From Eledone cirrhosa (Eukaryota), in NCBI GenBank assembly GCA_964016885.1, contig OZ024742.1:290656001-290720000 (forward strand): a stretch of DNA of 64,000 nt, given 5' to 3'. The notes beneath the pieces were generated by a model that saw only the letters and a program-made list of their open reading frames with translations, ran no database searches and was not told where the DNA came from. The position numbers and the translations under genes are program-made. Positions 11,401 through 60,560 of the stretch are shown here, piece after piece (the first letter of the stretch is position 1; each line of letters opens with the position of its first letter).

Positions 11401-13730
11401 TCATCATCATCATCATCATCATCAGGTTTAGCGTCCGTGTTCCACGCTTGCATGGGTTTGGACGGGGGTTTTCCCACTTGAGGCAAGAGTGGTTGTCTTG
11501 CTCGCATAGGACTGTCTGGTGGGTTTTCTACAGTTGGATGCCCTTTCTAACACCAACCACATTTACAGTGTGGGGCTGGGAGGTTTTTACCGTGTTGCCT
11601 ACACGGCCACATTACAGCGTGGACTGTCTGGCGGGTTTTCTACAGCTGGATGCCCTTCCTAACACCAACCACATTTACAGTGTGGGGCTGGGAGGTTTTT
11701 ACCGTGTTGCCTACACGGCCACATTTACAGCGTGGACTGTGTGTTTTTTGTCGTGACACCTACATGATCTCATTTGTTTCGGCCTGGATGTTGTGGGACC
11801 AACATAACTTTACATTGAAAGGGGCGGTGTGGGTGGGGTGGAGGTGGTGGGACGGGGGTGTGTTTTGATAGAGATGCCTACTGACTGTAGTAGGTTTTTA
11901 CTTTGTATTTAGGTAAGGCGGGTCTTCTCTATTACTGAGTACCGCCAAAGGTCTCGGTCCAGTGACATTGTCTTGGAGAGGTGTAAGCGTGTGAGGTCGG
12001 AATTTATCAGCTCGTCCCATGTTTTTCTGGGTCTGCCTACTCCGTGGCTACCGTCTATCTTTATTGCCCTGCACTTTGTTATACAGCTGTCGTCTTTCAT
12101 GCGCATCACGTGACCGTACCAACGTAGCCTTCTCTCGAGTAAACAACATCTGATCCCTCTTATTTCTAATTTTTTCCTTAGTTCGTTTATGCTTTGCCGT
12201 TCACGTATATTACTATTGCACATCCAGCGGAGCATGCAAGCTTCGTTCCTCTCTAGTCTACGTATATCCTCTGCACACAATGCCCAGGTCTCACTGCCAT
12301 GCAGCATTGCTGTTCGTATGCAGGCATCGTATAACCTGCCTTTCATTTTTAGGGAGAACCCTCTAGCGGCTAATAGTGGTATAAGCTCTCTGAACTTTTT
12401 CCATCCAGTTCTGACTCTAGCTACTGTACTTTCAGAGCACCCTCCCCCACTGCTGATTTTGTCACCCAGATAACGGAAGCTGTCCACTATTTCTATAGAA
12501 CCCTCTGCGCAGTTGAAGGAGCTAGTATTTTGTGGGCACTTGCTGCTACTTATTGCACCAGAGCACCGGCCACATGTAAAATCTATGTTCTTAGTTAGCT
12601 TACCTGTGATCCCACTACATCTTTTATGCACCCATACTTTGCATTTGGGACATAAAATGGAGTTTCTACCTACGCCTTTCCTACACACTGAGCATGGCCA
12701 TTTCCCAGATGGGACCGCCGCCTTATTTTCTTTCCTACAAACTAGAACTTTAGTCTTAGCCAGGTTAATTTTAAGGCCTTTTGATTCTAGGCCGTGCTTC
12801 CATGTTTGGAATTTCTTCTCTAGTTCGGTCATTGATTCAGCTATGAGCGTTAGATCATCTGCGTATAGGAGTTCCCATGGGCAGCCGGTCTTGAACTCCT
12901 CTGTTATAGCCTGAAGGGCAATAATAAATAGTAGGGGGCTAAGAACAGAGCCCTGATGGACACCAACTTTTACGCTAAACTCTTCACTATATTCGTTGTT
13001 AATTCTAACCTTACTGACTGTTTCTTTATACATGGCTTGTATAGCTCTCACAAGCCATTCGTCGACACCTAGTTTTCTAAGAGACCACCAGATAATGGAA
13101 CGGGGGACTCTGTCGAAGGCTTTCTCCAAGTCGACGAAAGCTAAGTATAGGGGTTTACTTTTAGCTAGGTACTTCTCCTGTAGTTGTCGTACAATGAAAA
13201 GAGCGTCTGTGGTACTTTTGCCTGACACAAACCCGAACTGCATTTCATCTAGATCAATTCTCTCTCTGATTAGTTGCGCTATTACTTTTTCCGTGACCTT
13301 CATGACCTGGTCGATTAATTTAATGCCTCTATAGTTACTCCTATCTAGGGCATCTCCTTTTCCCTTATAGCAGTTAACGATGATGCTGCTACGCCAGTCC
13401 TTCGGAACAACCCCATTCTGTACGACTTGGTTAACTATCCGGGTGACCATGGTGTGTCCCACCGAACCAGATCCTTTCAGCATCTCAGCAACTATTTCCG
13501 AAGACCCAGCCGCCTTACCTGTCTTCATATCTTTGATTGCCTTACTTATTATACTACCCTGGACTAACACTGCTGGTCCCTCTATTGGATCGATCTGGGG
13601 GAGACTGTCTTTCTCCCATTTGTTCTCCTCATTTAGAAGCCTTTCGTAGTGACACTTCCAAGCTACCTTCTTATCAGCGTCGGTGATGGCAAGTATGCCA
13701 TCATCGTTAAGTACACACTTCTCCCCGACA
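11401..13730 (-). mobile_element. 5'-truncated RTE-clade LINE with intact RT ORF segment, repeated 3'UTR and (TGA)n tail
   Basis: ORF 11909..13570 contains DLEKAFD, GVHQGSVLSP, YADD and the RTE C-terminus RRLRWYGHV. Tail (TCA)n on + at 11401-11423. Confidence 0.95.
11909..13570 (-). CDS. RTE LINE reverse transcriptase (partial ORF2) with an internal Cys/His PHD-like finger
   Basis: 553-aa open frame with RT motifs; CSVC..CPKCKVWVHKRC..CGRC lies after YADD. Confidence 0.9.
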   Translation of the reverse strand: MLVQGSIISKAIKDMKTGKAAGSSEIVAEMLKGSGSVGHTMVTRIVNQVVQNGVVPKDWRSSIIVNCYKGKGDALDRSNYRGIKLIDQVMKVTEKVIAQLIRERIDLDEMQFGFVSGKSTTDALFIVRQLQEKYLAKSKPLYLAFVDLEKAFDRVPRSIIWWSLRKLGVDEWLVRAIQAMYKETVSKVRINNEYSEEFSVKVGVHQGSVLSPLLFIIALQAITEEFKTGCPWELLYADDLTLIAESMTELEKKFQTWKHGLESKGLKINLAKTKVLVCRKENKAAVPSGKWPCSVCRKGVGRNSILCPKCKVWVHKRCSGITGKLTKNIDFTCGRCSGAISSSKCPQNTSSFNCAEGSIEIVDSFRYLGDKISSGGGCSESTVARVRTGWKKFRELIPLLAARGFSLKMKGRLYDACIRTAMLHGSETWALCAEDIRRLERNEACMLRWMCNSNIRERQSINELRKKLEIRGIRCCLLERRLRWYGHVMRMKDDSCITKCRAIKIDGSHGVGRPRKTWDELINSDLTRLHLSKTMSLDRDLWRYSVIEKTRLT

Positions 13731-14289
13731 CGGATTTGTTAATTCAAATGTTTATTGGTGGACAGTGTGTTGTTAACATTTTCAGTCTTAGAGTAAAGAC
13801 TGTAATTTTTAATGTAATTTAGCCATAGTTATCTATATATATAAAACTGATGTCTGTGTGTCCTCATTTTTGCAAAGTCTATACAAATCCACATTTCTAC
13901 TCCGATTGACTTGAAACTCGCATTTATATATTCCTTGCGGTCTAAAGATATTAACAGCCGCTTTTTTTTTTTTCAATTTTCTGTTGTTAAAGGGTGTTAG
14001 GTGTCGGTTATCCATCTCCGTCGCGCTCTAATAATATCTGTCTGCATGCCTGGCTGTCTGCATAACGTCATTGCTGACTTATTATCTTCGCTACATTCAC
14101 ACACAGACATGCGCGCGCGCACATATATATATACATATATACTTATATATATATATACACATATATACATATACACACACATATATACACATATACATAT
14201 TAAGGGTGAAAGCAGCGATTCTTTGCTTAAACTTTAATCTGTTATTCTAATAAATATATATATATATACATATACAAACACATACAAAC

Positions 14290-17908: not shown

Positions 17909-18010
17909 AATATATATAGTTAGAAATAGAAGCTTTCATCGCATTTTAACCAAAGAAAATTATACTTACTACAAATATATAGTTTATAATTTGAATGGAA
18001 AGGGATGGGT

Positions 18011-18081
18011 GATGTATTAGTGTAATGGCAGCACATTGGTTTGGATAACCAAAGATGTAGGTTCAACTCCCGTATATGTCA
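18011..18081 (+). ncRNA. tRNA-like cloverleaf (probable SINE head or tRNA pseudogene) inside a 45-bp inverted repeat (17918-17962 / 18129-18173)
   Basis: Acceptor GATGTAT/ATATGTC, D stem GTGT/GCAC, anticodon stem TTGGT/ACCAA with 7-nt loop TTGGATA, T loop TTCAACT with an imperfect T stem. Confidence 0.6.
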
Positions 18082-18261
18082 ATACTCATTTTTTCCCATT
18101 TAGAGGGTTTTAAACTCCACTATCAGACTAATTTTCTTTAGTCAAAATGCAGTGAAAGCTTCTATTTCTAACTCAATTTCAAACTTCACTCGACGTCTTC
18201 AAAACAACTTGCTTGCTTTCATATATATATATATATATATATACACACAAACACACTATAA

Positions 18262-19379: not shown

Positions 19380-22127
19380 TTTCTAAAAACTAACCTTCTC
19401 CTAAAGTTACCCATTTCCCCCTCCCAATACCACCATTGCTATTTGGTACAATCATAACTCAGCGGTTTATAGTAAGTTCTCTTACCAATCTCTATAGCAA
19501 AACCACCACCTCGGTTATTACTCCTTATGTTTAGACCTGGTTGCCTTTCGGTTTGCTAAATGGACTGCAGAATTTGGAGAGTCTGAACACTCAATGACAA
19601 TGTCACAGATAAAGATAAATTCACCTCCCACTGCCAGACGAGAATGCAAGGACTCCTCTTTATTTCAGACATGGATGACCAACATAATTCTGTCTCCCAC
19701 AGCCCTCCCTGCGCTCCCAACCCATCCATTCCACCCACCCAACGAAATCCAAAACTTCAGAGTTGGTACCATGAACGTAGGCACATTGAAAGATCACTGA
19801 AATGAGGTTGTAGAGATGCTTGAACGTAAGGAAGTTGATGTTTGTTGTGTTCAAGAGACTAGGTGGAAGGGTGGGTCTGCTAGATTCATTGTGGGTATAA
19901 AACGAAGCTATAAACTTTTCTGGGTGGGAAATGATAATGAGCTGGGGGAAGTAGGAATTATGTTAGCTGAAAATGTGTAGATAAAGTAATTGCCGTAAAA
20001 TAGAGTGAATGACAGAATAATTAAAATAAAACTAGTCCTAAATAGAACTACTGTGACAATAATATCCGCTTGTGCACCCCAATCTGGCCTACTTGACGTT
20101 ATAAAAGACAGGTTCTATGAGTCGCTAATGCTCACTACCTCCCAAATAACCGACACTGACTACTTAATTATTGCTGGTAACCTTAATGGATTATATCCTT
20201 ACTAGAAGACGTGACAGAGTGTCTGTTGTAAACACTAAGTCCCTCCTCCATGAAGAATGCGCCTCCCAACATACCCTAGTAGTTAGTGACCTCATAGTCA
20301 GGACTAGACGCACTCAACGACAGAGGAGGACTACCTTGAGGAGAAGAATATGGAAGTTAAAGGACCCCACAACCAGTGACAAATTTAAAAGCTTATTACT
20401 TGATGCTTTTTGAAAGTAAGGAAGAGCAATTAGAGATGTACAATATAGAGGAACAGTGGGTATTCCTGAAAGTTTACCTGCTTGAAGGCAACAGATGAAA
20501 TCTGTGGCTGGAGCAGACCTATAGGCAGGAGGAGAGTAACTTGGTGGTGGAACAGTAAGATGGAGGAGACAATCAAGGCCAAAAAGCAGGCTTCGAAAGT
20601 ATGGTGGGATGGGGCAAATAGAGAACACTATCAAGTGGCCAGGAGAGAAGTTATGGGACAAGTGTACCTAGCAAAAAGGGAAGCAGAGGATAGAAAGTTC
20701 AAGCATGTTCTACAACGTGAGGTGTTCAGGATTGTGAGACAATGTGTCAAAGAAAATTGTGATATTGTCGGGAGAAGTGTGTCCGTAATGATGATGGTGT
20801 ACTTGCCCTCACTTACACTGATAAGAAGATAGCTTGGCAGTGTCACTACGAGAGACTACTAAGTGAGGACAATAAATAGGAAAAAGATCTAATAGAGGGA
20901 CCAGCAGTGCAAGTTAGTGGTTGTATAATAAGTAAGGCAATCAAAGATATGAAGACGGGGAAGGCGGCTGGGCCTTTGGAGATAGTTGCTGAGATGTTGA
21001 AAGCATCTGGAATGATGGGACATACTATGGTCACCCGGATAGTAAACCAAGTAATACAGAATGGGGTCATACCAAAGGACTGGCATAGCAGCAGCATCAT
21101 TAACTGCTACAAGGCTAAAGGAGATGCTCTAGATAGGGGAAACTTTAGAGGCATTAAGTTAGTTGACCAGGTCTTGAAGATCACATTAAAGAGTTATAGC
21201 ACAACTAATCAGAGATCGAATTGATCTAGATGAAATGCAGTTTGGGTTTGTGTCAAGTAAAAGTACCACAGATGCTCTTTTCCTTGTACGACAACTACAG
21301 AAGTACCTAGCTAAAAGTAATAACCTCTACTTAGCTTTTGTTGACTTGGAGAAAGCCTTTGACAGATTCCCACGCTCTATTATCTGGTGGGCCCTTAGAA
21401 CACTAGGAGTAGATCAATGCCTTGTGAGAGCTATACAAGCCATGTATAAAGATACAGTCAGCAAGATTAGAATTTACAATGCTTATAGCGAAGAATTTAG
21501 CGTAAATGTTGGTGTTCATCAAGGCTCTATCCTTATCCCGCTCCTGTTTATTATTGCCCTTCAGGCTATAACAGAGGAGTTTAAGACCGGCGGCCCAATG
21601 GAACTTCTATACGCAGATGATCTAACTCTCATAGCTGAATCTATGGCTGAACTAGAGAAGAAATTCCAAACATGGAAGATTGGCCTAGAATCAAAAGGCC
21701 TTAAAGTTAACTTGTCTAAGACTAAAGTTCTAGTATATAGAAATGAAAATGGGAAATGGCCATGCTCAGTGTGTAGGAAAGGAGTAGGTAGAAATTCCAT
21801 TCTATGCCCCAATTCAAACAATATGTACATAAAAGATGTAGTGGGATCTCAGGCAAGCTATCTAAGAACGTAGATATTATATGTGGCCGATGCTCAGGTG
21901 CAATAAGTAGCAAATGCCCACTGGATACTAGTTTCTTCAACTGCCCAGATGGTTTTATAGAAATAGTTGATACTTTCTGTTACCTGGGTGACAAAATCAG
22001 CAGTGGTGGAGGGTGCTCTGAAAGTACAGTAGCCAAAGTTAGAACGGGATGGACAAATTTCAGAGAGCTTATACCGCTGTTGGCCACAAAATGTTTCTCT
22101 CTGAAAATGAAAAGCAGATTGTTTGGC
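19380..22127 (+). mobile_element. RTE LINE with 5' end, APE endonuclease and RT; frameshifted and 3'-truncated
   Basis: NFRVGTMNVGTL and CVQETRW (APE); ORFs 20907..21224, 21235..21873 (YADD) and 21804..22130. The 5' end is homologous to 45300-45480. Confidence 0.9.
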
Positions 22128-25639: not shown

Positions 25640-26745
25640 CTATTCACATCACATGTCTATACAAGCTCAGTCTTCTCTTCTGACTATAAATGTTTCCTCT
25701 TATACTTAGTTTCTATCTCAGTTCATACATGCTTAGTTTCTCATGCATATTAATATAGCACGTCCATGAAAGCATGATTACTTCATTTCTCTCCAGCCTT
25801 CACATACCCTCTGCAGTAACTGCTCATGTTTCACTACCAGGCAAGATTTTCAGATAGCATACAGGCATCATACACCTGACCTTTCATTCCTAGAGAGAAA
25901 CAACTTCTTGTCAACAGGGGTAGTAACTCTCTAAACTTCTTCCATCCTGTTCTTATTCTAGTTACTATGCTCCTTGAACACCCACCTCCTCTGCTAATTT
26001 TGTCACCTAGATAGCAGTAGCTATTAACCACCTCTACATATCCTACATAAAATTGAAAAAGGTGTATATCTTTGACACTCTTACTATCAATTTTCCCTGA
26101 ACATCTATTACATACAAAGTCTTTTTTCTTGTTAGTCTGCCTGTTACCCTGCTACACTTTTTATGTACCAAAGATTTACATTGTGTTCATAGTATAGAAT
26201 TTCTACCTACTCATTTTCTACATATCAAGCATGGCTATTTTCCCTGTGGGATCAGAGCCTTGTCTTATTTTCTACTTATTAACACTTTGGTTCTTGCTAC
26301 GTTTACCCACAGCTCTTTTGTTTCTAAGTTCTGTTTCCACAGACTAAAATTGTCCTCTAGTTCTTTTGTGGATTCAGCTATAAGAACCAGATCATTGGTA
26401 TACAGAAATTCCCATGGGCAATCCATTTTAAACTCCTTTGTTATGGCCTGAAGGACAGAAGTTGGCTGAGATCTGAGTTCTGATGTACTCCTACCTGTAC
26501 TTTAAATTCCTTGCTAAACTTACTTCCTACTCGCACTTTACTAACAGCTCCTCTGTACATCACTTGCAATGCTCTCACAAGCCATTCTTCTACACCTAGT
26601 TTCCTTAAGCGCCACCAGATGATAAATTGTGGTATTCTGCCAAAAGCTTTCTTCAGCTCAACAAAAGCTAGATGTAGAGGCTTACTCTTAGCTAAGAACT
26701 TCTCTTGTAGTTGTCTCATCTGTAGTACTCCTCCCTGGCACACAA
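25640..26745 (-). mobile_element. Degenerate RTE RT fragment (paralog 57480-58800)
   Basis: RQLQEKFLAKSKPLHLAFV..KAF and YLGDKISRGGGCS remnants. Confidence 0.85.
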
Positions 26746-26747
26746 CA

Positions 26748-28133
26748 TTGTTGGTTACTGCCTTGTTGGGACTTGCTGTACTGTTGGTTACTGCCTTGTT
26801 GGGACTTGCTGTACTGTTGGTTACTGCCTTGTTGGGACTTGCTGTACTGTTGGTTACTGCCTTGTTGGAACTTGCTGTACTGTTGGTTACTGCCTTGTTG
26901 GGACTTGCTGTATTGTTGGTTACTGCCTTGTTGGAACTTGCTGTACTGTTGGTTACTGCCTTGTTGGGACTTGCTGTATTGTTGGTTACTGCCTTGTTGG
27001 AACTTGTTGTACTGTTGGTTGCCTTGTTGGGACTTGCTGTACTGTTGGTTACTGCCTTGTTGGAACTTGCTGTACTGTTGGTTACTGCCTTGTTGGGACT
27101 TGCTGTATTGTTGGTTACTGCCTTGTTGGGACTTGCTGTACTGTTGGTTACTGCCTTGTTGGTTACTGCCTTGTTGGGACTTGCTGTACTGTTGGTTACT
27201 GCCTTGTTGGGACTTGCTGTACTGTTGGTTACTGCCTTGTTGGGACTTGCTGTACTGTTGGTTACTGCCTTGTTGGGACTTGCTGTATTGTTGGTTACTG
27301 CCTTGTTGGAACTTGCTGTACTGTTGGTTACTGCCTTGTTGGGACTTGCTGTATTGTTGGTTACTGCCTTGTTGGAACTTGCTGTACTGTTGGTTACTGC
27401 CTTGTTGGGACTTGCTGTACTGTTGGTTACTGCCTTGTTGGGACTTGCTGTACTGTTGGTTACTGCCTTGTTGGGACTTGTTGTACTGTTGGTTACTGCC
27501 TTGTTGGAACTTGCTGTACTGTTGGTTACTGCCTTGTTGGAACTTGCTGTACTGTTGGTTACTGCCTTGTTGGGACTTGCTGTACTGTTGGTTACTGCCT
27601 TGTTGGAACTTGCTGTACTGTTGGTTACTGCCTTGTTGGGACTTGCTGTATTGTTGGTTACTGCCTTGTTGGGACTTGCTGTACTGTTGGTTACTGCCTT
27701 GTTGGAACTTGCTGTACTGTTGGTTATTGCCTTGTTGGGACTTGCTGTACTGTTGGTTACTGCCTTGTTGGAACTTGCTGTACTGTTGGTTACTGCCTTG
27801 TTGGGACTTGCTGTATTGTTGGTTACTGCCTTGTTGGGACTTGCTGTACTGTTGGTTACTGCCTTGTTGGGACTTGCTGTACTGTTGGTTACTGCCTTGT
27901 TGGGACTTGCTGTACTGTTGGTTACTGCCTTGTTGGGACTTGCTGTACTGTTGGTTACTGCCTTGTTGGGACTTGCTGTACTGTTGGTTACTGCCTTATT
28001 GGAACTTGCTGTACTGTTGGTTCCTGCCTTGTTGGGACTTGCTGTACTGTTGGTTACTGCCTTGTTGGGACTTGCTGTACTGTTGGTTACTGCCTTGTTG
28101 GTTACTGCCTTGTTGGTTACTACCTTGTTGGGA
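26748..28133. repeat. 30-bp minisatellite, ~46 units, TTGTTGG(G/A)ACTTGCTGTA(C/T)TGTTGGTTACTGCC
   Basis: Directly visible; stop-free in several frames, which explains the spurious ORFs. Confidence 0.97.
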
Positions 28134-28896
28134 GTAACTTCCAAAAAACATGTCATAGTAAGATGTTAATTGCCAATTAACTCTAAAGGCCTTGTACTGC
28201 ATGAAACTACGTTGGACAATTTTGAAATGTACAAAACAGCACTACGAGTGCAGAAGATAAAAAAAAGTATTTTACTACAATACTGCGAATGTTCATAATT
28301 ATCATCATTATCATCATTGTTTAACGTCCATCTTCTATACTAGCATGGGTAGGACGGGCTGTCCCTTTGTGAGAGATCAGGTTGGAGGACTGTGATTTGC
28401 TGACACAGAACTGATTTTGACTTCATTTCTACGGTTGGATACCCTTCCTAATGCCAACCACATTTACAGTGTGTGCTGGGTGCTTGTTGTTGTGACATCT
28501 ATACGACCTCTTTATAGTGAGGACTGAGTGCTTTTGTCGTGACACCTACATGACCACTATATAGCTCTTTCACAATGTATCCAGCAATAAAGATACTATA
28601 AGTATGTGAATTAACAAACTTGTTTTTAGATATTTTCTGCTAAATCATTACAGGATGGCAAGAGTTAACATAACATCCTGTACCACATGAAAGCACATTA
28701 GCAAGACACTCTTGAAAAGCACAAATCTGTGCTATGACCACATCACATTAAAAATTAAAATCTTCACTCTTTGTCACAGCAATCTGTTCACTAGTAAAGA
28801 TACTATAAACAATTGAATTAACAAATTTATTTTTAGATATTTTCTGCTAAATAATTTCAGGATGTTAAAAGTTAATGAACCATAATTTGTTTTTAG

Positions 28897-29124
28897 ATTT
28901 TGATGAGCTTAAACAATATAATACTCACTTGTCTACAAACTGCTGAGGAAAGGGGAGCCAAAAGCATTGCATTCCCTATATTAGGGGCAGGAATCTTGAA
29001 ATACCCTCTTGGTGAACTACCTTCAACCATGTATGATGCCGTGAAAACATACTCACATAGTAATACAAGGCAGATTGATGTTGTCAACTTTGTTATTTTA
29101 CCTACAGATTCAAACTTAATAGAG
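28897..29124 (+). CDS. Host exon, macrodomain C-terminal part (repeat B): ILMSLNNIILTCLQTAEERGAKSIAFPILGAGILKYP...ILPTDSNLIE
   Basis: TTTTAG acceptor, GTTGGT donor, 228 bp, phase 0-0. Confidence 0.9.
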
Positions 29125-29749
29125 GTTGGTTGATTTATTTTGTTTTTATTGTATTTTTGATTCTCTTGATATTCTTAATTCTTTTTCTTGTTATATGTTG
29201 TAACCATAGTTACTATTATTAGATTGCAGTCATGGTTATAGAAATTAGACTATGCCCATGGTTACAGTTATTAAATTGTAGCCATGGTTAGTTATTAAAC
29301 TAATTATGTTTACAGTTTTTGAATTGGCCATTGTTACAATCATTAGACTGCTGCCATGCTTGGGCACCACCTTAAACAGATTTAGTACTTATCTATGTTG
29401 CTCAAGGGTTGGATGAATCAGTACAGTCTAAAACTAGACCACATTTTGACTAATAAATTCCATGGCTAGATACACTTCTTAATGTCACCCACCTTATAGA
29501 GTGTATTGGATGCATTTTATTATGGCACCATCATTTTATATATTTACATATATTTCTTGGTAGAGCTATTCTGATAGAGAATGGCTCACACGTGGCAGAT
29601 AGTGATATGACCACTAGATATGATGGTTAGTTGAGGCATAAGCGGGTTTCTGTTGAATGAATAAGCAACACCGGATCAAACAGTATTAAGCTATTAGGGA
29701 GATGGAATAAAGGGTGACACTGTTAGCTTTCAAATAAACTCTTACAAGT

Positions 29750-31184
29750 TAGCAATGTACATATGATGAAGCAAGTAAAGTGTGCCTCTAAACAAGTCTA
29801 GTCTTTGTGGGTCTGAGAAAATTACCAAATTGGTGACAGGTGCAAATAATATCACCAAAAAGTGCACCACGCCAAGCTTCTTTCACCCACAGCATTTAAA
29901 AGCTGAAGCAGAAACTGCTCAGCTGAACAAGTTCTACATTGTTTCAATGTCCTCAGTTTTCTCAGGGAGTTCTCTGAATTTGGATACAATAGTGTCTGCA
30001 TACCTGGTCCTGACTTTCTTATCCACCAACGCTTCCCACTTTATCTTGTTGGTCACTCTGGACCTGCCAGTTTTGTGGGCTTATTTGGCTTTAGGTAGTC
30101 TCAAGCTGTAGATAAATAGATGAAGACCAGTTGACAGCTCAGCCCCTCTCTTAACACAAATTTCCAGTACTGAATCGAAGAGATCAGAGACAATAACAAA
30201 ATCACTTATTGATCTCTGTCCCTGATTCCCCTTATACCATGTATATTTATGGATGTTTCTGTGCTGGAAGAAGGTGTTTATAATAGAGAGTCCATTGCTA
30301 AAACAGAAGTCTAATAAGGCCTCTCCATTCATATATAGGTAGGGATTACCGATCCTTCCAATCATTCCTTTCCATGTCGGGTGGTCTGTGCTAACATGTG
30401 CATTGAAGTCTCCCATTAGGATATATGACTCAGTCTTAACTAGATCTTACGCTGCAGTGACTTCATCAAGGAAGGATCTGTATTTGGACTCTTTGTTCAG
30501 TGCATAAACTTGCACCACCCACAAAAACCTATCTTTCAGCCTAAGTTTCAAGAGTCAAATCCTCTCACCTAATGATGTCCAGTCTATAACACATTCTGAC
30601 AGTCGGGGGGCTGTGAGTATCCCCACTGCTGCCTGTGCAGTCATTTCTAGTGTCATACCTGAATAGTGGAGTTTCCATTTTCTATCCAAATCTTCAGTAC
30701 CAGATCCACGGAACTTGTTGAGGAAACCCAAACTATATATAGCTGGAAGCATCTAAACCCCTCCACTAGTTCCTGCTCCTTACCTGTAAGGATTGTGATG
30801 CTCCAGGTTCCAATTGTCAAGGTTTGTTCCCTTCCAAACCATCTTTGATGTCTCGAGATATGCAATCGTTATGCGTAAATCCCATGCCTCCCAGGACAGG
30901 CCGTAAGCTCATTACCAGTTTTTACAGCAAGAAATAGAGACTGCAATATATTTTTTGAACAGGTCCCTCTACTTAAGGCCCGAATGTGTCCCTTATTAAT
31001 TCATGTGAAGGATAATATTGCAGTTTTGGTGGTTTTATTCCTGCCAGTCACCAATCTGGTACTTTCTCAGACCCATGAAGACTAGGCTTTTTTAGAGGTG
31101 GCATTTTCATAGCTACATCACTGGGTTGTGAAAGATTTCTTGGGAACTAAAGGTATCACCCGCTACTTCATCTCCCTTAGTAAT
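29750..31184 (-). mobile_element. Degenerate RTE-type LINE 5' part (APE endonuclease), interrupted by LTR element 2; uninterrupted paralog ~61420-62960
   Basis: MGDFNAHV and NTFFQHRNIHKYTW (ORF 30081..30416); LTIGTW. Confidence 0.8.
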
Positions 31185-31479
31185 TGTAGTTAGAAAAATC
31201 TATCTCACTTACCGCTTTTCACAGGCGCTGCTAAATTCCACTGCAGGTACTCATCTTCCACGTGCGACCGACTGCTTAACACCGGGAGCTGCCCAAAACT
31301 CGCGTCCACACCGTATGCTGGTCACCACTAGAGAGAAGCCCTCTCCTGGCCCTTCCGGTCGAGCATCCTTCCGGCCAAAACACCCTTCCGGTCGAGCACT
31401 CCCCCGCCTCCGGCCACCGCACGCCACACCATACCCACACGCCCCACTGATCTCAAGGATCAATTTCCCCCTCGTCCCT

Positions 31480-34400
31480 CTACATATGAAAGTCTGCCGT
31501 CCAGGTCGGTGGTCTACGACTTCGTTGCGATCTTCGTAGTATTGGGGCAGAGCTCTGGGTTTCCACCTCATCTTGGGTTTCCTCTTCCTCGGAGTCCGTC
31601 GACACAGTGATTCTTCTTACATCCATGACATGACCTGGTACCCCGTCCATGGACACATTGTTCTTTGAATTTACGGCCGTCACCGTTCCCCTTCCCCATT
31701 GAGATGTGCAACGTGGACCTGGGGGCTTAACCCAGACTTCTTTGCCCACCTGCACGAATGCACTCTCTCTCCCCACAGGCCGTTGTGGTGGCGTGCACGG
31801 GTGCCGCCACTCATATTTGAATACTGCTCTATGTGGCACCGATTCCTCGACCTGTCCAACCCGAGGGGACATATTGTACCAGAACACTGCCTCCATTGGT
31901 GAGATATGGCCCCGCTCCGCCATTGCCTTAATCGTCCGGTGGTGTCACTCCACGATTCCATTCCCGCTCGGCCTGTGCGCCGCTCTGAAGAAACGGTCCA
32001 CCTTCCATCCATCGAGCATCTCCCTCAGTGCCTCTGAGCGGAACGCTGTGCTGTTGTCAATCAGCAGTTCATCCACAGGGCCCCGCTCCAAGAACACCTC
32101 TCTCAATGCCCGAACGATTTCCTCGGCCGTTCCAGTCTTCATCTCCCTCCATATCGCCATTCGACCCGGTCCACAGTCGACCATCGAGAGGTACGTTCCC
32201 TGCCGGTAGTGCGTCACATCCACCGCTAATCGCTTCCAGTCGCGATCCACCGGGAGGCTTCCCGTTTCGTGTACACCCGGGGCGGGATCAATGGACTGAC
32301 ATCGGACGCAGCCTCTAACCACCCCCCGAACACTGTGTCTGCTAACGTCCGAGTCGATTCTCCTGGCTAGGAACAGGCTCCTATCCACCCCCATGTGGTG
32401 CATGTCATGCAACCCCTTCAGGTCTAACTCGGTCAGCCGACACACGGCAGCTATCTCATCCTCTACCTCCTCCGGCGCTTCCATCCAGGCTTTCTTCAGT
32501 CTAGTTAAGGTGTCCGCCCTATTTTTCTCTGAAGGCACGAACACTACGCTCAGCTTCAGGTCGAACTCGGTGGCCAGCTCTCCTAACGTTCCCAGGTGGC
32601 GCTTTATCAGCATCTCCGCCGTGCCTCTCGTTCGCATTCTCTTCTCACTGGTGAGCACTGATCTTACCCATCCGAGTACGGTAGCCGAGTCGGTGCGTAT
32701 CTCGATGGTGCACAGCCCCCACCGCAGGGCGAGGTTCACCCCTCTCAACACCGCGTCCAGCTCGGCCACATTGATGTGGCTGCAGTCCTTCTTTCTAAGC
32801 CAGGCTGCTTCCTCGACCTCAACACCTCCTATCTCCAACGTGACACCCAGCGCTATGCTGCTGGCATCGCACCATACGGTCCCGCTCCGTGATTTGGGAA
32901 CGTACCAGCGTCCCCGCACTGGGTCGTCGGCCTTCACCCTCCCCACGATCTCCTGCATCATGGCCACCGTTCTCTCTCCCACTCTGTCACTCCAATTCAC
33001 CCCTCCTGCTCGTCTCTTGACATAGCTGCATGCTGTCCGAAGCCACCCAGCGATCGGGTAGTGACCCACCAGCTTTCCACACACCGAGAAAAGCTCCCGC
33101 CTATTCATACTTGGGCCCAGTTCCGGAACTTCGTTTCCCCTCTGGAACACCGAAACGCCCGTCTTATCTCGCCGTAGCCTAAGTCCCAGCGCGGCTCCTC
33201 CCTCCAATGCTTCTGATGGCTTCGCAGTCAGTCCATACCTCCGCAAATGGCTCGTGACCTCTGCCGTCGACACCACCGACTCGTCCACTAGGATGTCGTC
33301 AATGTAGGAGTTAGTAGCCCTCTTTATCTTGTCGGCCCTCCCCAGAGCGGTCTTGAGGACCGCCGCCATGATCTTCGGTGCGGAGCTCAGCCCGAAACCA
33401 AGCCTGGTCAGGCAATATGTCCGGCCCTTATACCTAACCAGCTGATACCGCCAGAGCTTCTCATCTATATGCAACTGCAAGTAAGCCGACTTTAGATCCA
33501 CGATTGCTGAACCCCCGTCATGCGTCTCCACTCACGCAGGGTTTCCCCACAGACATCCGTGACCTCGCCACCCGTGTGGCATGACACGTGCTCGTTCAGC
33601 TCTCGATAGTCCAGCACCGGCCTCACCTTGCTCTTCGTGGGTTGCACCACCGTGATCAACGGCAATACTCCGCACTTCACCTCCTCCTTCCAGGGAAGCA
33701 GTATGCCCTCTTCGATCCATCTATCTACTTTTCGCTCGAACTCGCTCCTAGCGTTTCCCTTCAATGTGTGTTGATAGCAGCCCACTTTGGTCTTCAGTGT
33801 TGGTGGTTCTCCCTTCCAGTACCACTCAACAACCCATCGCTGCCCATCAAACACGGCCTTGAAGTCCTTGTCCTGTACAGTGTAAGCGGGGTATTCCTCC
33901 TCGTGGGCCTTCTGGTTCTCATGACGTGCACTTACAGCCCATACCGATGCAGCGGCGCCAAACGACACACCGACATTGTTCACCGTGACGCCCCCTAGAC
34001 GGCCAATCGCGTCCATGCCCATAACCACGCCGATCCCATCCACCACACTGTCTACCACGATGGCGGAAAGCCTTATCGTCCTTCCCCGTACCGCTATTTC
34101 CATCTCGCTGCGACCTCTGCATTCAATTTTCCTGCCGTCGACTGCCCTTACGCTGTTCTTCCCTCCCCACCTCTGCGCCACCCCCGCGGTCACCAGTGTC
34201 GTCGTACAGCCCGTATCCACGAGAGCTCGCTGTGGTTTCCCCCTCACGAAGACTTCCACCACGGGCAGCACCGATACTCGTAATAGGGCAACTACCGGCG
34301 CAGTAGTTCCCCTTGGATCGTTTCCCTGGTCACAGTTAGTAGCGATGTGGCCTGGTCGCTTACACCGATAGCAAATTATCTCCGGCTTCGACTCTCTACA

Positions 34401-35015
34401 GTCTCTAGTCATGTGCGGGCCGTGACACCTAAAACAGCGTCCCCTAAATTCTTGCGGACTGCCGCGTGCCGAGGTTGCCTCCATTTGACCATTTTGCTGC
34501 CAGGTGTCCTGAGCCTCCGTAGTCGCTATCGCCGCGACACTCTTTTTGGCATCTTCCGCTATGATCCGGGCTTGTTCCACCAGTGAACGCATTTCCATCT
34601 CCTTGTACCCCAGGACTTGCTGCAGTTTCACCGCTATGTCGTCCGGAAATCCATTGATGAATGCCAACCGCGCCGTGCGTTCGCATTCCGCCTGGTAACC
34701 TGCCAACATAGCCAACCGCCTTATTTCCGCTGCGAAAATGTCGACGCGCTCACCATTCCACCTGATTCTCGCCAGCTTAGCAAAAGCCGCCAACGGTCCC
34801 TCGGCGAATGCATCCATCAGTCGCCTCTCAATCTTCTGCACATCTCTTTGGCTGTGCTCGTCCAACTCAAGGAAGAGTACCAACGCGTCGCCCTCGAGGT
34901 ACAATGCAATGAGACCGGCCACGCCTTCTATCTTCTGCAAGCCTGCGACCAGCCGAACCTTCCGCAGCCAAGCGACATCACCTTCCCCGGTGAATGGCCT
35001 GATAGCTTCGTTCAT
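31480..35015 (-). pseudogene. gag-pol polyprotein of LTR element 2; one frameshift near 33515 and one premature stop near 31945
   Basis: Two CCHC knuckles, LVDTG protease, DLKSAYLQ/FGLSSAP/YIDD RT, CDAS/AEL/TDS/ADTL RNase H, HHCC plus DDE integrase. Confidence 0.92.
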
Positions 35016-35056
35016 CTGTTTTCTTTTTTTTTTTTTTTTTTTTTTTTTTATCAGTC

Positions 35057-35068
35057 GCCGAAATAGCT
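35057..35068 (-). promoter_or_regulatory. Putative primer-binding site AGCTATTTCGGC (complement of tRNA-Phe nt 1-12)
   Basis: Abuts the 5' LTR; identical to 4516-4527. Confidence 0.75.
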
Positions 35069-35981
35069 TGTAGTTAGAAAAAGCTATCTCACTTACCGCT
35101 TTTCACAGGCGCTGCTAAATTCCACTGCAGGTACTCCTCTTCCACGTGCGTCCGACTGCTTAACACCGGGAGCTGCCCAAAACTCGCGTCCACACCGTAT
35201 GCTGGTCACCACTAGAGAGAGGCCCTCTCCTGGCCCTTCCGGTCGAGCATCCTTCCGGCCAAAGACCCCTTCCGGTCGAGCACTCCCCCCGCCTCCAGCC
35301 ACCGCACGCCACACCATACCCACAGTAATTCACCACTGTTGGTCCAGGGGTTGTTTACTTGTCCAGCAGGTGCTCACTTATATCATAACTAACTAATATT
35401 ACTGTTGGCCGTATCGCTATTCCCCACCTATGACCTGTTCTCTAGCAGAACAGCTCTGCCAAAAAGTATAAGAGTAACAAATAAAAACCAAGAGAAATAT
35501 TAATTTAAAACAATATTCATGGTTGAGTTAGAGCTAGTCTTTTAAATCTGTTTTTCCCTGTTTTGCATGGTTTGGACAGAGCCTGGAGCTTATCCCAGTT
35601 ACTTGGGCATTAAACTAAGGGTACTTATGTTTAGCTAAATCAACTGGAACAGCATGAAATGAAGTGCCTTGCTGGTCTGAACATTGAACCCAAGGTCTTT
35701 ACATTCACAATAGAAATAATACATAATTAAAACATTTTATTGTAATTTATTGATAAATATAACAATTAATTTGAAATGTAGTCATTCCAATGCATGTGAC
35801 TCTAATAATAGCTGACCACTGTAGATAATAGTTTAAAAAATTAGGTACAATACCCCTGGAGATGGAAAAAAGTGGACAGCGGTGCTTGCGAGGAATTAAA
35901 CCCTAAACCAGGCAAGTGTATTATTCACTGTTAAACCAATAAGTCTCTGACCACTGACTGCTGTCTTTTAGAAGCATTTAA

Positions 35982-49344: not shown

Positions 49345-51288
49345 ATTTCTTTATTTACCATAAAGGCATAAAAAGAAGGGACAAATACAAAGGGGGAGTT
49401 TACATATAATCGAGTAAAAAGGGTGTAACATGAAAATAATCGAAAATAACCTCAAAAGGGAGGGGACGTGATGGGGGTTGCACACACCCCCGAAAAAGTG
49501 TGCAATCCTTTGCCCGGGGAGCACATGGAGAAGGTGCTCCCCTCTCCTTTACTTCTTTACCTACAGGATGGTATACAGAGAAGGCCCATTTACACGAGCC
49601 ATTCTCGCCACTATCACCCACCTTTCATAAAACTGCCTGTGGCCAAGCACCTCTCTCTCCATTCTTATCCTTCTTCCGAAGTGATATCGGAAGAAGTAGA
49701 CCAGACTATGGCCAGAGAGGAAGTTGCCTGACCTCAGACCTTTCAATCGTGTCCACCAAACAACCTCTTTCAACATGGCTATTACGCACAGAAAAATCGC
49801 CTTTGCTTCCTTTGTGAAGAGGGGAGGCGGTTTGATTGTCATCACGGACCCGGCGGTCAATTTAATCGGCGCCACCCGCGACAGCAGTTGTTCGGCGTAC
49901 CCCCACAGATCAGCCACGCCAGGACATTGCACCAATGCGTGCGCCACGGTTTCTTCGTGACGCACGCATCTAGGGCAAATCTTTTTTGAGGGATCCCTGC
50001 CCGGGCGCCCGTGTCTGTAGAGCCTCTCTCGAACGGGTAGAGCCCCTCGGTAGCACTGCCAGGCCAGTGACTTCTGGAAGTTGTCCATTGGTCCTGGGCC
50101 GAAAGTCCTACCGAACAGGCTGGCCAGTTCGTCTTCTTCCATGTCCAGCGACTCTCCAAGGGTGTCATCGCCCCTGCTAGCCACCAGCCCTCTATAGAAT
50201 GATGAGGTGGATTCTCCACCGATGGCCCGGCCCGCTTGCCAGAGAGCCCTGAGCGCCTGAGCACACTCAGTGTGCCAGTCTCCCAGTTTTCCGGATCTTT
50301 GCTTGACCCAGGACTGTAGCTCGGTGAGTGAGACGAGTCTCGGAAAGGCTCGTTTCACGAACGGAGCCCACACCGGTTGACCAGTGAGGAATACCTGTAG
50401 GTGCCGTAGCCTTAATGCGTGCCTACGCATCATCAACCACGGCATCCCCAGCCCTCCTTTCGAAGGTTGTTGGCAGCAGATGGATCTTCTCACCATAGGA
50501 GGACGCTTCTTCCAAAGAAATTGGAAGAGCATGCGTTCCATGGTGGTGAGTGTTTCCTTAGGGCAAGGCACGACAGTCAGGCGGTAGTAAGTGACGGACG
50601 CTATGTAAATGTTCGCCACCTCCGCCCGGCCTTTTAGGGACAGCTTACACTTGGCCCATTTCTGGGTTAGTGCAAACACCTTGTTCGTAACCTCGTTCCA
50701 GTTCTTTTCCACCTGGAGGTCCGGTCCAAACCAGACCCCAAGCAACTTTACCGGGCCCTCCGTCCAGTGTCCGACGACACCGTCAGGAGGCATCGGTTTG
50801 CCTCTCCACGTTCCGAGTTGCAGCCCGATGGATTTTTCCCGGTTCAGTTTCGCTCCTGACAACCTTTCGTACTCCTCCAGTAAGGTACCGATCGCCTCGA
50901 TCTCCGAGTCGGTTGATACCATTACTGTTACGTCATCGGCGTAGGCCGACACCGCTTTGCTCAATCCTGGTTCCAGGGGGATACCCTGCAACAACTCCAA
51001 CTTCCTCAGTAAGGGCTCGAGAGTCAATACGTACAGAAGGGAGGAGAGAGGGCACCCCTGTCGAATGGATCGTGTGATTTCGAACGGCTTCGAAAGGTAG
51101 CCGTTCACCTTGATCCTAGAACAGATGTGGTTGCTATGTAGGGCAGTGATCCAGCCTCTGAAAACAGGACCGAACCCAGCCGCCGCTAGCACCGCATCCA
51201 GGTAACCATGGTCGACCCTATCAAAGGCCTTAGACTGATCCAAGTTGATCAGGGCCCCACCGAAGCCGGGTTTGTTGCCAACCCTCTC
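49345..51288 (-). mobile_element. Tx1/L1-clade non-LTR retrotransposon, 5'-truncated, open RT-to-end ORF (49561..51243)
   Basis: DQSKAFDRV, RQGCPLS, YADD and a C-terminal CPRC..EETVAHALVQC zinc motif. The 3' end lies in a GATA-type repeat. Confidence 0.93.
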
Positions 51289-52638
51289 TATTTACCACAA
51301 GGGCGCACAAGAAAAGGGGACAATACAAAGACACATGCCGGGGATTTTACATACAGTCGTGTAAAAAAAACAAAAAAACAAACAAACAATTATAACAATC
51401 GAAATCCCCAATAGGGGGGAGACGCCACAAATGGGTTGTTTAATACCCCATCGATAGAACAACCCTCAACTTCAGGAGCATGTTGTGCAAGTGCTCCTTT
51501 CTTTAACCTACAAGCTTATAATGAGAAGGCCCAATCACTCGGGCCATTTTCGCTTCATTCACCCACCTTTCAGTAAATTTACTCAGGTGCAGTGCCTCTC
51601 TCTCCACTCTGATTCTTTTTCTAAAGTGATACTTAAAGAAGGGAATCAAATGTTGTCCAGAGAGAAAGGCATCTGTCCTCAGTCCTCTCAATCTCATCCA
51701 CCATATAACTTCTTTCACCATAGTCACTGTACAGAGGAAAACTGCCTCTCTTTCGTTTTTGAAAGAGGCTGGCGGTTTGATGCTTACTATGGACTTGGCA
51801 GTCAACTGGATTTATCCCATACGCAACAGCAGTTGTTTTGCATAGTTCCACAGGTCGCTTACGCCCGGGCAGTGTACAATTGCGTGCAAGACGGTTTCAA
51901 TGTCCTGCTTGCATCTTGGACACGTCCTCTTGGAAGGATCCCTGCCGAGGTGTCCGTGCCTGTAGATCTTATCTCGAACGGGTAGAGCTCCTCGGTAGCA
52001 CTGCCAGGCCAGGTACCTTTGGAAGTGGTCCATAGGTCCCGGGCGGAAAGTCCTACCGAACAGACTGGTGAGCTCGTCGTCTTCGACGCCTAGAGTCTCC
52101 CCGAGCACATCGTCGCAGTCGTAAAGTACCAACCCTCTATAGAATGTCGAAGTGGAGTCTCCACTGATTGCTGTGCCCGCTTGACAGAGGACTGTGAGCG
52201 CCTGGGCACATTCAATGTGCCAGGCGCCTATCTTCTTCGATCTTCGCTTGACCCAGAACTGCAGCTCCGTCAGCGAGACAAGTTGTGGGAAGGCCTGTCT
52301 CACAAACGGTGCCCACACCGGTTGGTCGGTGAGGTATACCTGGAGATGCCGTAGCTTCAGCGCATGATTAGCCATGGCATTCCCAGCTCTCCGTTGGAAG
52401 GGTGTTGACAGCAGACGGATCTCCTCAGCAGTGGAGCCTGCTTCTTCCACAGGAACTGGAAGAGCATGCGTTCCATCTTGGTGAGGTATTCACGGAGACA
52501 AGGCACGACATTCAAGCGGAAGTAGATGACGGACGCTATGAAAGTGTTCGCCACCTCCGCTCGACCTTTCAAAGACAGTTTGCACACTGCCCACTTCTGG
52601 GTGAGCGCAAATACCTTGGCCATGACCTCATTCCAGTA
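51289..52638 (-). mobile_element. Second related Tx1/L1-clade element, 5'-truncated and degenerate, fused to the first
   Basis: ORFs 52357..52674, 51812..52450 and 51503..51805 parallel the ORF2 C-terminus of the first element. Same 3' terminus motif (TATTTACCA.AA.GGC on +). Abuts (TAGA)n at 52637. Confidence 0.9.
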
Positions 52639-53177: not shown

Positions 53178-55028
53178 CCCTTTAGCATTCATATATATAA
53201 ATATAAATATTCTTTACAATATTGTCAGACAATCTTCCTATCATGATATTGGCCAATACAGCCTTTACATAATGGCACTTTGCAAAATCAATATTTCTTT
53301 GTTCACCTCAGATAATTTTGACTTTCTCCCAGCTTTGTGTTTGCGAGAATTACATCCTCCACGCAGCTGAGATGCGACATCCACACAAAATTTCATGTGG
53401 CAGTAGTCCTTTGGTGGTGGCGGATCCTTGTGGCTTTTAGTGAATACAATAAAAGAATTCACAATGGTTAAATTCACTAAAAACCACAAGATATATCTCC
53501 ACCATTTCTTCCCAGGGCGTCCAACTGGGTAATATGTGCAATATTGATCGGATTTGTCAACCCCGCCCATACATTTATTATAGGAGCGGTTGACTAAAGG
53601 TTTACTTTCAGCCCCAACTCCTGGTTGTTGGTTAGAAGCAAAATTTGCCGTTTGTCTTTGTACAATGTGGCTAACATGTTCCCTTTTTGCACTTGGAGAG
53701 TGTGCCCTCTCTTTTTAAATTTTGTGATTTTTATTTCTTGGGGTAGCCCTTTGCGATTCCCCATTATTGTACCGCAGGTGTACGTATTTACGAGGGAAGA
53801 ACCTCTGCTAGAAGCACTAAAGAAAAAAAACGGTCAAAATATATGTCTGTGTTGAGAGTGGAATGGTTCAGTCAGAGACCACACAACATCGTACCCCAAT
53901 CTATTTTTTCTCTCTCCGTTGTGTTTCTTTCCTGTGTAAACATCAAAGTTTGCACAGTAGCCTGTGTCCGATTCACAGAGTTTCCACACCTTGATGCCCC
54001 ATTTGGTGGGTTTAGTTGGCATATATTGTCTGAAATGTACTCTACCCTTATACCCAATCATAGCTTCACCAACACTAAGATTTTTCCCAGGTATATATAC
54101 TGTTTTAAATTTTTCACATAGTATTTTAATTAATGGTTGAACTTTATAAAGAGGGTCATAATTCAATTCATTTCTATCGGGGACATTTGAAGTATCAACC
54201 AGATGCAAATACTGGTTTAATTTTAAATACCTTGTTTTTGCCATAATACTTGATATATAAGGGTCACTAAACCTTATATCAGTGCTCCAGTAATTCTATA
54301 GTCTTGGAAATTGTTTTATACCAAACATAATATTTATGGTAAAAAACGCTTGCATCTCCGCAGCATCTGTCAGTCGCCATAACAGATCGGGTTTTCTTCG
54401 ATTTGAAATTTGTTGTTGGGCATATCAATTAGTTTCTTTTGCCACAACTTTGAAGAAAGTTTGTGGCAAAAACAAAAAGAAATAATCCAGTGCTTTAGCA
54501 TCAGGAGGTAATGTGTGTTGTGGACCAGTATTTTCAATAAAATCGGGAACATGTATAGGTGTGGTATTTGTCGACCACGTTGCTGTAATATCTTCAATGA
54601 CATCCTGGAGATCTCCTTTGTTTTCACTTTCAAAACAACAATCATCGTCGGATGAAATTTCAGAAATGTAAACATCTGATTGATTTGAGGATAAATCACT
54701 AATATTATCTTTTGTTTCATCGTGTGTAAAACCTTCAAAGTCGGTATCGCTACTTTCACAAGCCATGTTGATACACACAAAAAAATCTGTTCTACTTTCA
54801 ACGTTAAAAAAACACGTGTTGTTTCAAGTTGTTTCACTATGTTAAGTGTTAATTTTTGCAATAAGGGTCTAATCTCGCAGTAATCTCGAATTGATGAGAT
54901 TTTGATGACGTATTGTTTATTTTTAGAACAATATTTTAGTGTGAGTGTTATTGGCCATTTTGGGCCGGATTGAACTAATGAAGAGGAAATAATTGCGGCC
55001 GGTTTGGGCTGGTTTGAACACTAAAGGG
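53178..55028 (-). mobile_element. piggyBac-family transposon (1851 bp) with both ends; transposase pseudogene
   Basis: TTAA TSDs at 53174-53177 and 55029-55032. 14-bp imperfect TIR CCCTTTAG(CA/TG)TTCA. Motifs QYMPTKPTKWGIKVW and MGGVDKSDQ. Empty site TTAA at 23631-23634. Confidence 0.96.
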
Positions 55029-57479: not shown

Positions 57480-58800
57480 ATCATCACTTTACATCTACTT
57501 TTCCATGCTGGGTCAGATGGGTCCTTTTCAGCACAGCCACTTTCTACTTGCTGCAATCTTTTATTGTCTCTACTATGAGTTTCAGTGATTTGAGATCAGC
57601 TCTTATGACTTCTGCTCAGGTCTTCCTTGGTTTACCTCCACTGTGGCTTCCTTCCACTGGGATTTCTTGGCACTTCTTCACCTAGCAATCATCATCTATT
57701 CACATCACATGTCTATACAAGCTCAGTCTTCTCTTCTGACTATAAATGTTTCCTCTTATACTTAGTTTCTATCTCAGTTCATACATGCTTAGTTTCTCAT
57801 GCATATTAATATTGCACGTCCATGAAAGCATGATTACTTCATTTCTCTCCAGCCTTCACATACCCTCTGCAGTAACTGCTCAAGTTTCACTACCAGGCAA
57901 GATTTTCAGATAGCATACAGGCATCATACACCTGACCTTTCATTCCTAGAGAGAAACAACTTCTTGTCAACAGGGGTAGTAACTCTCTAAACTTCTTCCA
58001 TCCTGTTCTTATTCTAGTTACTATGCTCCTTGAACACCCACCTCCTCTGCTAATTTTGTCACCTAGATAGCAGTAGCTATTAACCACCTCTACATATCCT
58101 ACATAAAATTGAAAAAGGTGTATATCTTTGACACTCTTACTATCAATTTTCCCTGAACATCTATTACATACAAAGTCTTTTTTCTTGTTAGTCTGCCTGT
58201 TACCCTGCTACACTTTTTATGTACCAAAGATTTACATTGTGTTCATAGTATAGAATTTCTACCTACTCATTTTCTACATATCAAGCATGGCTATTTTCCC
58301 TGTGGGATCAGAGCCTTGTCTTATTTTCTACTTATTAACACTTTGGTTCTTGCTACGTTTACTCACAGCTCTTTTGTTTCTAAGTTCTGTTTCCACAGAC
58401 TAAAATTGTCCTATAGTTCTTTTGTGGATTCAGCTATAAGAACCAGATCATTGGTATACAGAAATTCCCATGGGCAATCCATTTTAAACTCCTTTGTTAT
58501 GGCCTGAAGGACAGAAGTTGGCTGAGATCTGAGTTCTGATGTACTCCTACCTGTACTTTAAATTCCTTGCTAAACTTACTTCCTACTCGCACTTTACTAA
58601 CAGCTCCTCTGTACATCACTTGCAATGCTCTCACAAGCCATTCTTCTACACCTAGTTTCCTTAAGCGCCACCAGATGATAAATTGTGGTATTCTGGCAAA
58701 AGCTTTCTTCAGCTCAACAAAAGCTAGATGTAGAGGCTTACTCTTAGCTAAGAACTTCTCTTGTAGTTGTCTCATCTGTAGTACTCCTCCCTGGCACACA
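57480..58800 (-). mobile_element. Degenerate RTE RT fragment (paralog of 25640-26745, retains its 3' end)
   Basis: Near identity to segment B, plus ~470 bp (57220-57690) missing from B. Confidence 0.85.
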
Positions 58801-58803
58801 ACA

Positions 58804-59799: not shown

Positions 59800-60560
59800 G
59801 TGACTTCCAAAAAACATGTCATAGTAAGATGTTAATTGCCAATTAACTCTAAAGGCCTTGTACTGCATGAAACTACGTTGGACAATTTTGAAATGTACAA
59901 AACAGCACTACGAGTGCAGAAAATAAAAAAAAGTATTTTACTACAATACTGCGAATGTTCATAATTATCATCATTATCATCATTGTTTAACGTCCATCTT
60001 CTATACTAGCATGGGTAGGACGGGCTGTCCCTTTGTGAGAGATCAGGTTGGAGGACTGTGATTTGCTGACACAGAACTGATTTTGACTTCATTTCTACGG
60101 TTGGATACCCTTCCTAATGCCAACCACATTTACAGTGTGTGCTGGGTGCTTTTTGTTGTGACATCTATACGACCTCTTTATAGTGAGGACAGTGCTTTTG
60201 TCGTGACACCTACATGACCACTATATAGCTCTTTCACAATGTATCCAGCAATAAAGATACTATATGTATGTGAATTAACAAACTTGCTTTTAGATATTTT
60301 CTGCTAAATCATTACAGGATGGCAAGAGTTAACATAACATCCTGTACCACATGAAAGCACATTAGCAAGACACTCTTGAAAAGCACAAATCTGTGCTATG
60401 ACCACATCACATTAAAAATTTAAATCTTCACTCTTTGTCACAGCAATCTGTTCACTAGTAAAGATACTATAAACAATTGAATTAACAAATTTATTTTTAG
60501 ATATTTTCTGCTAAATAATTTCAGGATGTTAAAAGTTAATGAACCATAATTTGATTTTAG

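Follow-up and report, generated by a model that had tools for sequence, protein, structure and literature searches.

Two LTR retrotransposons in the window

The window, i.e., the whole 64,000-nucleotide stretch of Eledone cirrhosa DNA that was analyzed, contains two LTR retrotransposons of ~4.1 kb each, both on the minus strand: E1 (span 613–4797) and E2 (span 31185–35324). Each encodes gag with CCHC knuckles, protease, reverse transcriptase (RT), DUF7047, RNase H and integrase, with the coding sequence interrupted in both elements. The following features were delimited:

E2, with its target site
35325–35329, minus: 5-bp target-site duplication ATTAC, partner copy at 31180–31184
35069–35324, minus: 5' LTR, 256 bp, TG...CA, 8 substitutions per 255 aligned nt relative to the 3' LTR
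35082–35092, minus: U5 segment able to fold onto the primer-binding site (PBS), 10–11 bp with G:U pairs and a short loop, family-specific
35057–35068, minus: PBS, exact complement of host tRNA-Phe(GAA) nt 1–12, adjoining the LTR end
33492–35015, minus: gag with two CCHC knuckles, protease and N-terminal part of RT, frame break within RT
31945–33531, minus: remaining RT (YIDD), thumb (DUF7047), RNase H and integrase, ending at a premature stop in integrase
31480–31944, minus: C-terminal remainder of integrase past the premature stop
31442–31448, minus: polypurine tract, 2 nt between tract and 3' LTR
31185–31439, minus: 3' LTR, 255 bp
62844–62848, minus: empty pre-insertion site with ATTAC present once, within a segmental duplicate of the sequence flanking E2

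E1
4528–4797, minus: 5' LTR, 270 bp
4516–4527, minus: PBS, 12-mer identical to that of E2
1090–4299, minus: gag-pol, split over several frames
613–864, minus: 3' LTR, 252 bp, 17 substitutions per 252 aligned nt

The ends of the E2 LTRs were fixed independently by the 96.5% identity of the LTR pair, the ATTAC duplication and the empty site. E1 is flanked by a 5-bp duplication with one mismatch and, judging from the LTR differences (17/252 versus 8/255), is older than E2. Of 22 host copies examined, 15 could be delimited at both ends, and ten of these had a 5-bp target-site duplication with at most one mismatch (six exact). The first ATG of E2 lies 41 nt past the PBS, after a poly(A) tract; its RNase H carboxylates are D222, E257, D281 and D340, and its integrase has the motifs HHCC, D, D and E.

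The poly(A) tract between the PBS and the gag start (35022–35049 in the window) was also present, with variable length, in the main host family (L001–L030). The cDNA ends are asymmetric: a 2-nt spacer separates the polypurine tract from the 3' LTR (31440–31448 in the window; also loci L087, L089, L090, L091 and L098), but the PBS adjoins the 5' LTR without a spacer. The segmental duplication (26400–31184 plus 35325 onward versus 58500–63119) is 97% identical over 3.2 kb and includes 33-bp tandem arrays; E2 is inserted in one copy, and the site is still empty in the other. At 11909–13738 (minus), 21190–21873 (plus), 49561–52489 (minus) and 53834–54295 (minus), the remainder of the window carries a DDE_Tnp_1_7 transposase fragment and pieces of non-LTR RTs, one of them with a PHD finger and others with zf-RVT. 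ARAGORN also called a tRNA-Ser(GGA) at 18010–18082 (plus), whose anticodon is unusual for a eukaryote and which is possibly a SINE head or a pseudogene.

A primer-binding site matching the 5' end of tRNA-Phe

The 12-mer AGCTATTTCGGC was found at 35057–35068 and 4516–4527, and these were the only two matches in the window even with one mismatch permitted (shuffle mean 0.07). The initial annotation had placed both copies directly after a 5' LTR ending in ACA, in place of the canonical TGG, and had extended their match with tRNA-Phe to tRNA position 1. All of this held: both 12-mers follow the LTR with zero spacer, now assigned to the minus strand; no TGG was present just past the E2 5' LTR; and the host tRNA-Phe(GAA) starts with GCCGAAATAGCT. 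A 25-nt pattern opening with the complement of the 12-mer had 210 matches in the host genome; 12 of these loci were fetched and, in eight of eight scanned with ARAGORN, a tRNA-Phe(GAA) began exactly at the first base. Also observed were extensive tandem arrays of tRNA genes (Phe/Asn with a ~1.26-kb period, intron-containing Met, and Lys(CTT)), located at G000:C4:117.37–117.58 Mb, C2:102.0–102.15 Mb, and C4:79.56 and 128.7 Mb.

The E2 PBS has no mismatches to tRNA-Phe nt 1–12 and five to the 3' acceptor strand. The same relation, 5–6 mismatches to the tRNA 3' strand versus 0 to the 5' end, was found in the Phe, Lys and Met types alike, ruling out the PBS as a sense copy of the 3' acceptor strand. 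Exact 10-mer complements to tRNA-Phe occurred in E2 only at the nt 1–12 site, and tRNA-Phe nt 13–15 (CAG) showed no in-register pairing with the LTR end. E2 contains neither a canonical PBS for a tRNA 3' end (the best candidate had 4 mismatches in 12) nor a complement of the anticodon stem-loop of the kind used as a half-tRNA PBS.

Conservation in the host genome and in distant relatives

The host genome holds 514 occurrences of the junction 15-mer but just one of the reversed control. Thirty junction loci were fetched, a set biased for presence of the 12-mer because it was picked by the motif itself; in six of the 30 the 12-mer was kept next to LTRs giving no blastn match to the E2 LTR. In host copies picked by Gag (the best 30 of 150 scored copies, one of them E2) the 12-mer was exact in 27 and had one mismatch in the other three. 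Searches of the host genome gave no matches for the variant PBS sites (control 4) and, for Lys- or Met-type members, a single match that fits neither site. Three near-identical copies spaced at ~10 kb (G000:C994:14488–34814; L135–L137) suggest tandem amplification of an element-containing unit. Internally deleted copies of 2.7–3.1 kb or shorter (L010/L163, L180 and L004), possibly non-autonomous derivatives, retain the LTRs and the 12-mer.

Homologs of Pol were numerous, at least 474 longer and at least 552 of similar length, and the named ones came from Argonauta, Octopus, Aplysia, Oratosquilla, Petrolisthes and Trinorchestia. On a quick tree of lineage members, from which L083 and L102 were left out as short, the window protein was closest to Octopus. 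A Pol-based metagenome scan yielded 70 loci with 32–56% identity, 45 of which were evaluable (23 gave no match to the Gag N-terminus and two had no upstream DNA). A 12-mer of the tRNA-5' type was present between the LTR end and gag in all 45 of these Pol-picked relatives (42 seen directly and three overlapping the profile start; ~7 near-duplicates within the set), so that the family-wide conservation expected from the two window copies was borne out both here and in the Gag-picked host copies. ACA formed the three bases ahead of the 12-mer in 38 of the 45, and in all of them an ATG followed 0–22 nt behind it. A scan of viral contigs found no relatives.

When compared with real tRNA starts, either tool-called or printed in PMC8715211 and partly found via PBS-built patterns, 39 of the 45 12-mers were exact complements, four had one mismatch and two had two. 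The common PBS variants differ at tRNA nt 5–6, in the acceptor stem. In contig scans, tRNA-Phe(GAA) genes starting with either of the two commonest variants were found, some clearly eukaryotic in form; a eukaryotic example of these 5' ends was not found in paper text, and tRNA-Thr in phage contigs matches two of the variant 5' ends as well. In one distant clade (support 100), the PBS matched tRNA-Lys(CTT), tRNA-Lys(TTT) (with the start given in the accessible part of PMC8715211) and elongator-type tRNA-Met(CAT).

Covariation of the PBS with the host tRNA-Phe, proposed as a check in the initial annotation, stood in part. The PBS shifts alongside tRNA 5' ends, a relation seen against tRNA classes rather than species by species, the relatives being metagenome loci; but judging from these sequences the site is not Phe-specific, since it switches to the 5' ends of Lys and elongator-Met tRNAs. 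In the Met-type PBS, C replaces A at the LTR-adjacent base where tRNA nt 12 is G instead of U, which argues that this base is paired and not a spacer. The 10–12-nt 5' tRNA-Phe primer suggested earlier is supported by sequence and can be refined: the pairing probably covers all 12 nt. At the other end, the aligned sites indicate that conservation stops at tRNA nt 1, as had been predicted, with 1.85 bits of column information at that position and 0.14 at the next base (48 sequences), a result that is partly circular because most sites were first found by pattern.

Several peculiarities of the metagenomic material were recorded. Eukaryote-type tRNA-Phe genes were located inside bacterial MAG contigs (L283–L287, L292, L294, L313 and L317), probably due to contamination; they had no encoded CCA, several had T-rich tails and one formed a tandem array. 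Many contigs were circularly permuted with a single LTR (L049, L054, L059–L062, L070, L072, L075, L079 and L089–L091), representing collapsed repeats or one-LTR circles. In L094, gag together with its PBS was inverted relative to pol, and the PBS of the near-identical L096 differed by one G:U-compatible base.

Encoded proteins and lineage placement

The RT catalytic motif YxDD/FxDD was present in 236 of 240 homologs, AYLQ in 223 and the RLGFG signature in 216, and the four RNase H carboxylates (D/E/D/D) were found in 120 of 120. A structure model of an intact natural relative (pLDDT 94.9) consisted of RT, a helical thumb at the DUF7047 position and one RNase H. The modeled RT, ~16% identical to solved RTs, had its best match in a caulimovirus RT (TM 0.71), and its predicted fold resembles ordinary LTR-class enzymes. 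None of six intact proteins was recognized by the canonical profiles (RVT_1 below cut-off, no match to PF17917/PF17919), and no Pfam match to a chromodomain was obtained in six intact proteins at E 0.05. The ESM Atlas gave weak leads only, with a DUF7047 cluster at 0.88. A lineage profile scored 470–557 bits for the members versus ≤16 bits for 24 Gypsy loci of the host, which probably represent one family.

The lineage is tight and isolated, has a DUF7047 thumb and a single invariant RNase H, and lies far from the canonical Gypsy of the host. It may be a long-branch offshoot of Mag, the Cigr-1 clade or a separate superfamily. Membership in the Cigr-1 clade can be suggested only tentatively. 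It is also possible, albeit somewhat doubtful, that these LTR elements make up a lineage of superfamily rank, so far undescribed, which occurs throughout marine animals and probably in other eukaryotes as well. Its defining trait would be a priming mode in which the 5' 12 nt of a host tRNA (Phe, Lys or elongator Met) are captured and its RNase H cuts the tRNA in trans in the D-stem. If so, the lineage would form an evolutionary link between tRNA priming and the self-priming of Tf1, and would supply ultra-short 5' fragments of tRNAs from an element-encoded source.

Priming mode

The position and conservation of the PBS make it highly probable that minus-strand DNA is primed by a 12-nt 5' piece of a tRNA. 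The tRNA 5' end would anneal to the PBS by invading the acceptor and D stems, probably aided by the two-knuckle nucleocapsid. With tRNA nt 12 placed against the LTR end, a 3'-OH would be needed there and hence a D-stem cut, which between nt 12 and 13 would free the 3'-OH at nt 12. The RNase H of the element may make this cut in the RNA:RNA duplex, as that of Tf1 would on its own transcript end, and the 12-nt piece would then prime minus-strand DNA. For this full version, in which a 12-nt tRNA piece is the primer and the element's own RNase H cuts between nt 12 and 13, we consider the case evenly balanced. The analogy with Tf1, together with a boundary constant across tRNA types and hosts, leads us to favor the element RNase H over a host nuclease as the putative cutter; its conservation cannot single it out, because RNase H is invariant in any working retroelement.

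The same primer could also arise by a host-made cut, either as a D-loop-cut 5' tRNA fragment that anneals and is shortened to the 12-bp duplex by a host nuclease or as a ready-made 12-mer, and this is a serious, albeit somewhat doubtful, alternative. Every piece of sequence evidence for the primer applies to it equally. Short 5' pieces annealed better than the whole tRNA in the fold model, the gain predicted by cofolding being -3.4 kcal/mol for the full tRNA versus -8.9 for the pre-cut 12-mer, so that a host-made fragment fits equally well. That tRNA pieces can prime is evident from Copia half-tRNA priming, as described in the accessible text of PMC6317226 and PMC10886601. However, the 12-nt boundary is constant over Phe, Lys and Met tRNAs and over very distant hosts, and an element-encoded ruler would explain this more easily than a host cut. 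An extra helix between U5 and tRNA nt 14–25 (D-arm), resembling the helper stems of Tf1, was predicted for the window family (z -2.7) and also in L014; as a general feature it was rejected (mean z -0.12 ± 0.15, 3 of 45 elements at p ≤0.05).

Cutting would be dispensable if the tRNA were docked by its 5' strand and DNA synthesis started either at an internal 2'-OH, a mode of priming known in retrons, or at the 3' CCA, which invasion of the acceptor stem would release. Such use of an uncut tRNA is very unlikely: E2 has no complement of the tRNA 3' end, nt 12 is either U or G and therefore provides no fixed branch nucleotide, and the RT is predicted to fold like ordinary LTR-class enzymes. Even less can be said for the 12-mer serving not in priming but as a tRNA-fragment target for translation control or packaging near the gag start; the ATG located 0–22 nt behind it in 45/45 relatives would suit such a role, but the 12-mer adjoins the LTR end in every case, exactly the required PBS position, and E2 has no other PBS candidate. 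Finally, Tf1-type self-priming by the 5' end of the element transcript or by the U5 segment, which the initial annotation had named as a possible primer source, is hardly credible: although in three host families (E2, L024 and L028) a 10–11-nt stretch of U5 can pair with the PBS if G:U is allowed, Watson-Crick pairing of the PBS with the upstream LTR reaches a mean longest run of 5.2 nt versus 5.4 in shuffles (45 elements), none of the 45 has a run of ≥9, the U5 hairpin is located just 12–14 nt away from the end of the LTR and has suffered damage in E1, and PBS changes track tRNA sequences, not the LTR sequence. The U5 segment, which is not a plausible primer, may merely mask the PBS.

Novelty and significance

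The feature is real and present throughout the lineage, and it very probably serves as a priming signal of a type for which the searchable literature gave no example. Priming by the tRNA 3' end, by a tRNA half and by a self-primer are the modes described in the accessible text of PMC6317226, and the accessible portions of PMC10886601, PMC7472051, PMC13524379 and PMC4600332 give 3'-end, half-tRNA (Copia only) and self-priming. Within the partly accessible literature searched, which did not extend to Repbase and GyDB, priming from tRNA nt 1–12 was not described, and neither was the PBS of this lineage or DUF7047 in a priming context. An earlier note of a tRNA nt 1–12 PBS may exist outside this literature, which we regard as unlikely but by no means negligible. 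Such a site is easily missed, since PBS screens, as far as described in the accessible sources, target tRNA 3' ends, tRNA halves and LTR self-complements.

We regard the feature as one more form of priming by tRNA fragments, carried by a lineage whose classification is poor. The start of reverse transcription is a defining trait of retroelement groups, and the tRNA nt 1–12 mode would add to the few described. By implication, the priming or silencing of transposons could be open to 5' tRNA fragments as it is to 3' ones. The 12-mer motif combined with DUF7047 also provides a sharp annotation marker for a high-copy lineage that is barely detected by standard Gypsy profiles.

Relation to known retroelements

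An Odin/Lokiretrovirus or retrovirus type was rejected, since one RNase H directly follows the thumb without a tether and second RNase H, and the RT has YxDD, the motif of Odin/Loki being SSDD. The Troyka/Kuafuorterviruses resemble the present elements as a deep, neglected LTR lineage of aquatic animals (accessible text of PMC12440569 and PMC11673190), but they have CG...CG ends, a 3-bp target-site duplication, xADD and a size of 5–6 kb, against TG...CA, 5 bp, YxDD and ~4.1 kb here; membership was rejected on the termini, the duplication and the RT motif.

Canonical Ty3/Gypsy elements (Metaviridae) share the TG...CA LTRs, 5-bp target-site duplication, gag-PR-RT-RH-IN order, single RNase H and two CCHC knuckles. 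The AYLQ motif of RT is also present in SPM and Cer4, with the Mag lineage as a lead, and RLGFG was absent from the reference RT sets in the supplement of PMC11673190, the gaps of whose alignments could hide it. The differences are the lack of a 3'-end PBS, RVT_1 below cut-off and no PF17917/PF17919. The Cigr-1 clade (Ciona), compared by description only, is similar in size and in its occurrence in cephalopods. Cigr-1 itself is reportedly ~4.2 kb long, with ~245-bp LTRs and one long ORF. The clade is listed in molluscs, including Octopus, in the accessible part of PMC6238403, in which no PBS description for it was found; PMC2774666 makes no mention of Cigr, Ciona, PBS or primer.

Membership in Copia was rejected because the integrase is not located before RT. 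Priming by a tRNA half is known for copia and Ty5. It is also described for Osser, Bryco, Gymco-II, Bianca and fungal Copia/Helenus in the accessible text of PMC6317226 and PMC10886601. As far as these sources go, the half-tRNA Copia lineages resemble the present one in that a cut 5' tRNA piece is the primer and the tRNA type can switch in evolution, but they are reported only with the Copia order (integrase before RT), in contrast to the Gypsy order found here. Furthermore, those lineages pair via the anticodon stem-loop, while the present elements would pair with nt 1–12, i.e., the acceptor 5' strand and D-stem.

The Tf1/Sushi chromoviruses share the Gypsy-type domain order, and the RNase H of Tf1 is said to be implicated in cleaving the transcript end to form the primer. 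They differ in that the partner here would be a host tRNA in trans and not their own transcript, in the chromodomain, which was unseen here, and in their distant protein lineage. In Tf1 the RNA 5' end pairs with the PBS and is cleaved (accessible text of PMC4600332), and the likeness lies in a PBS that pairs with an extreme RNA 5' end, cut about a dozen nt in for a 3'-OH (PMC4600332 and PMC6317226, as far as accessible). With the same geometry and a primer in trans, the origin of Tf1 self-priming would become testable.
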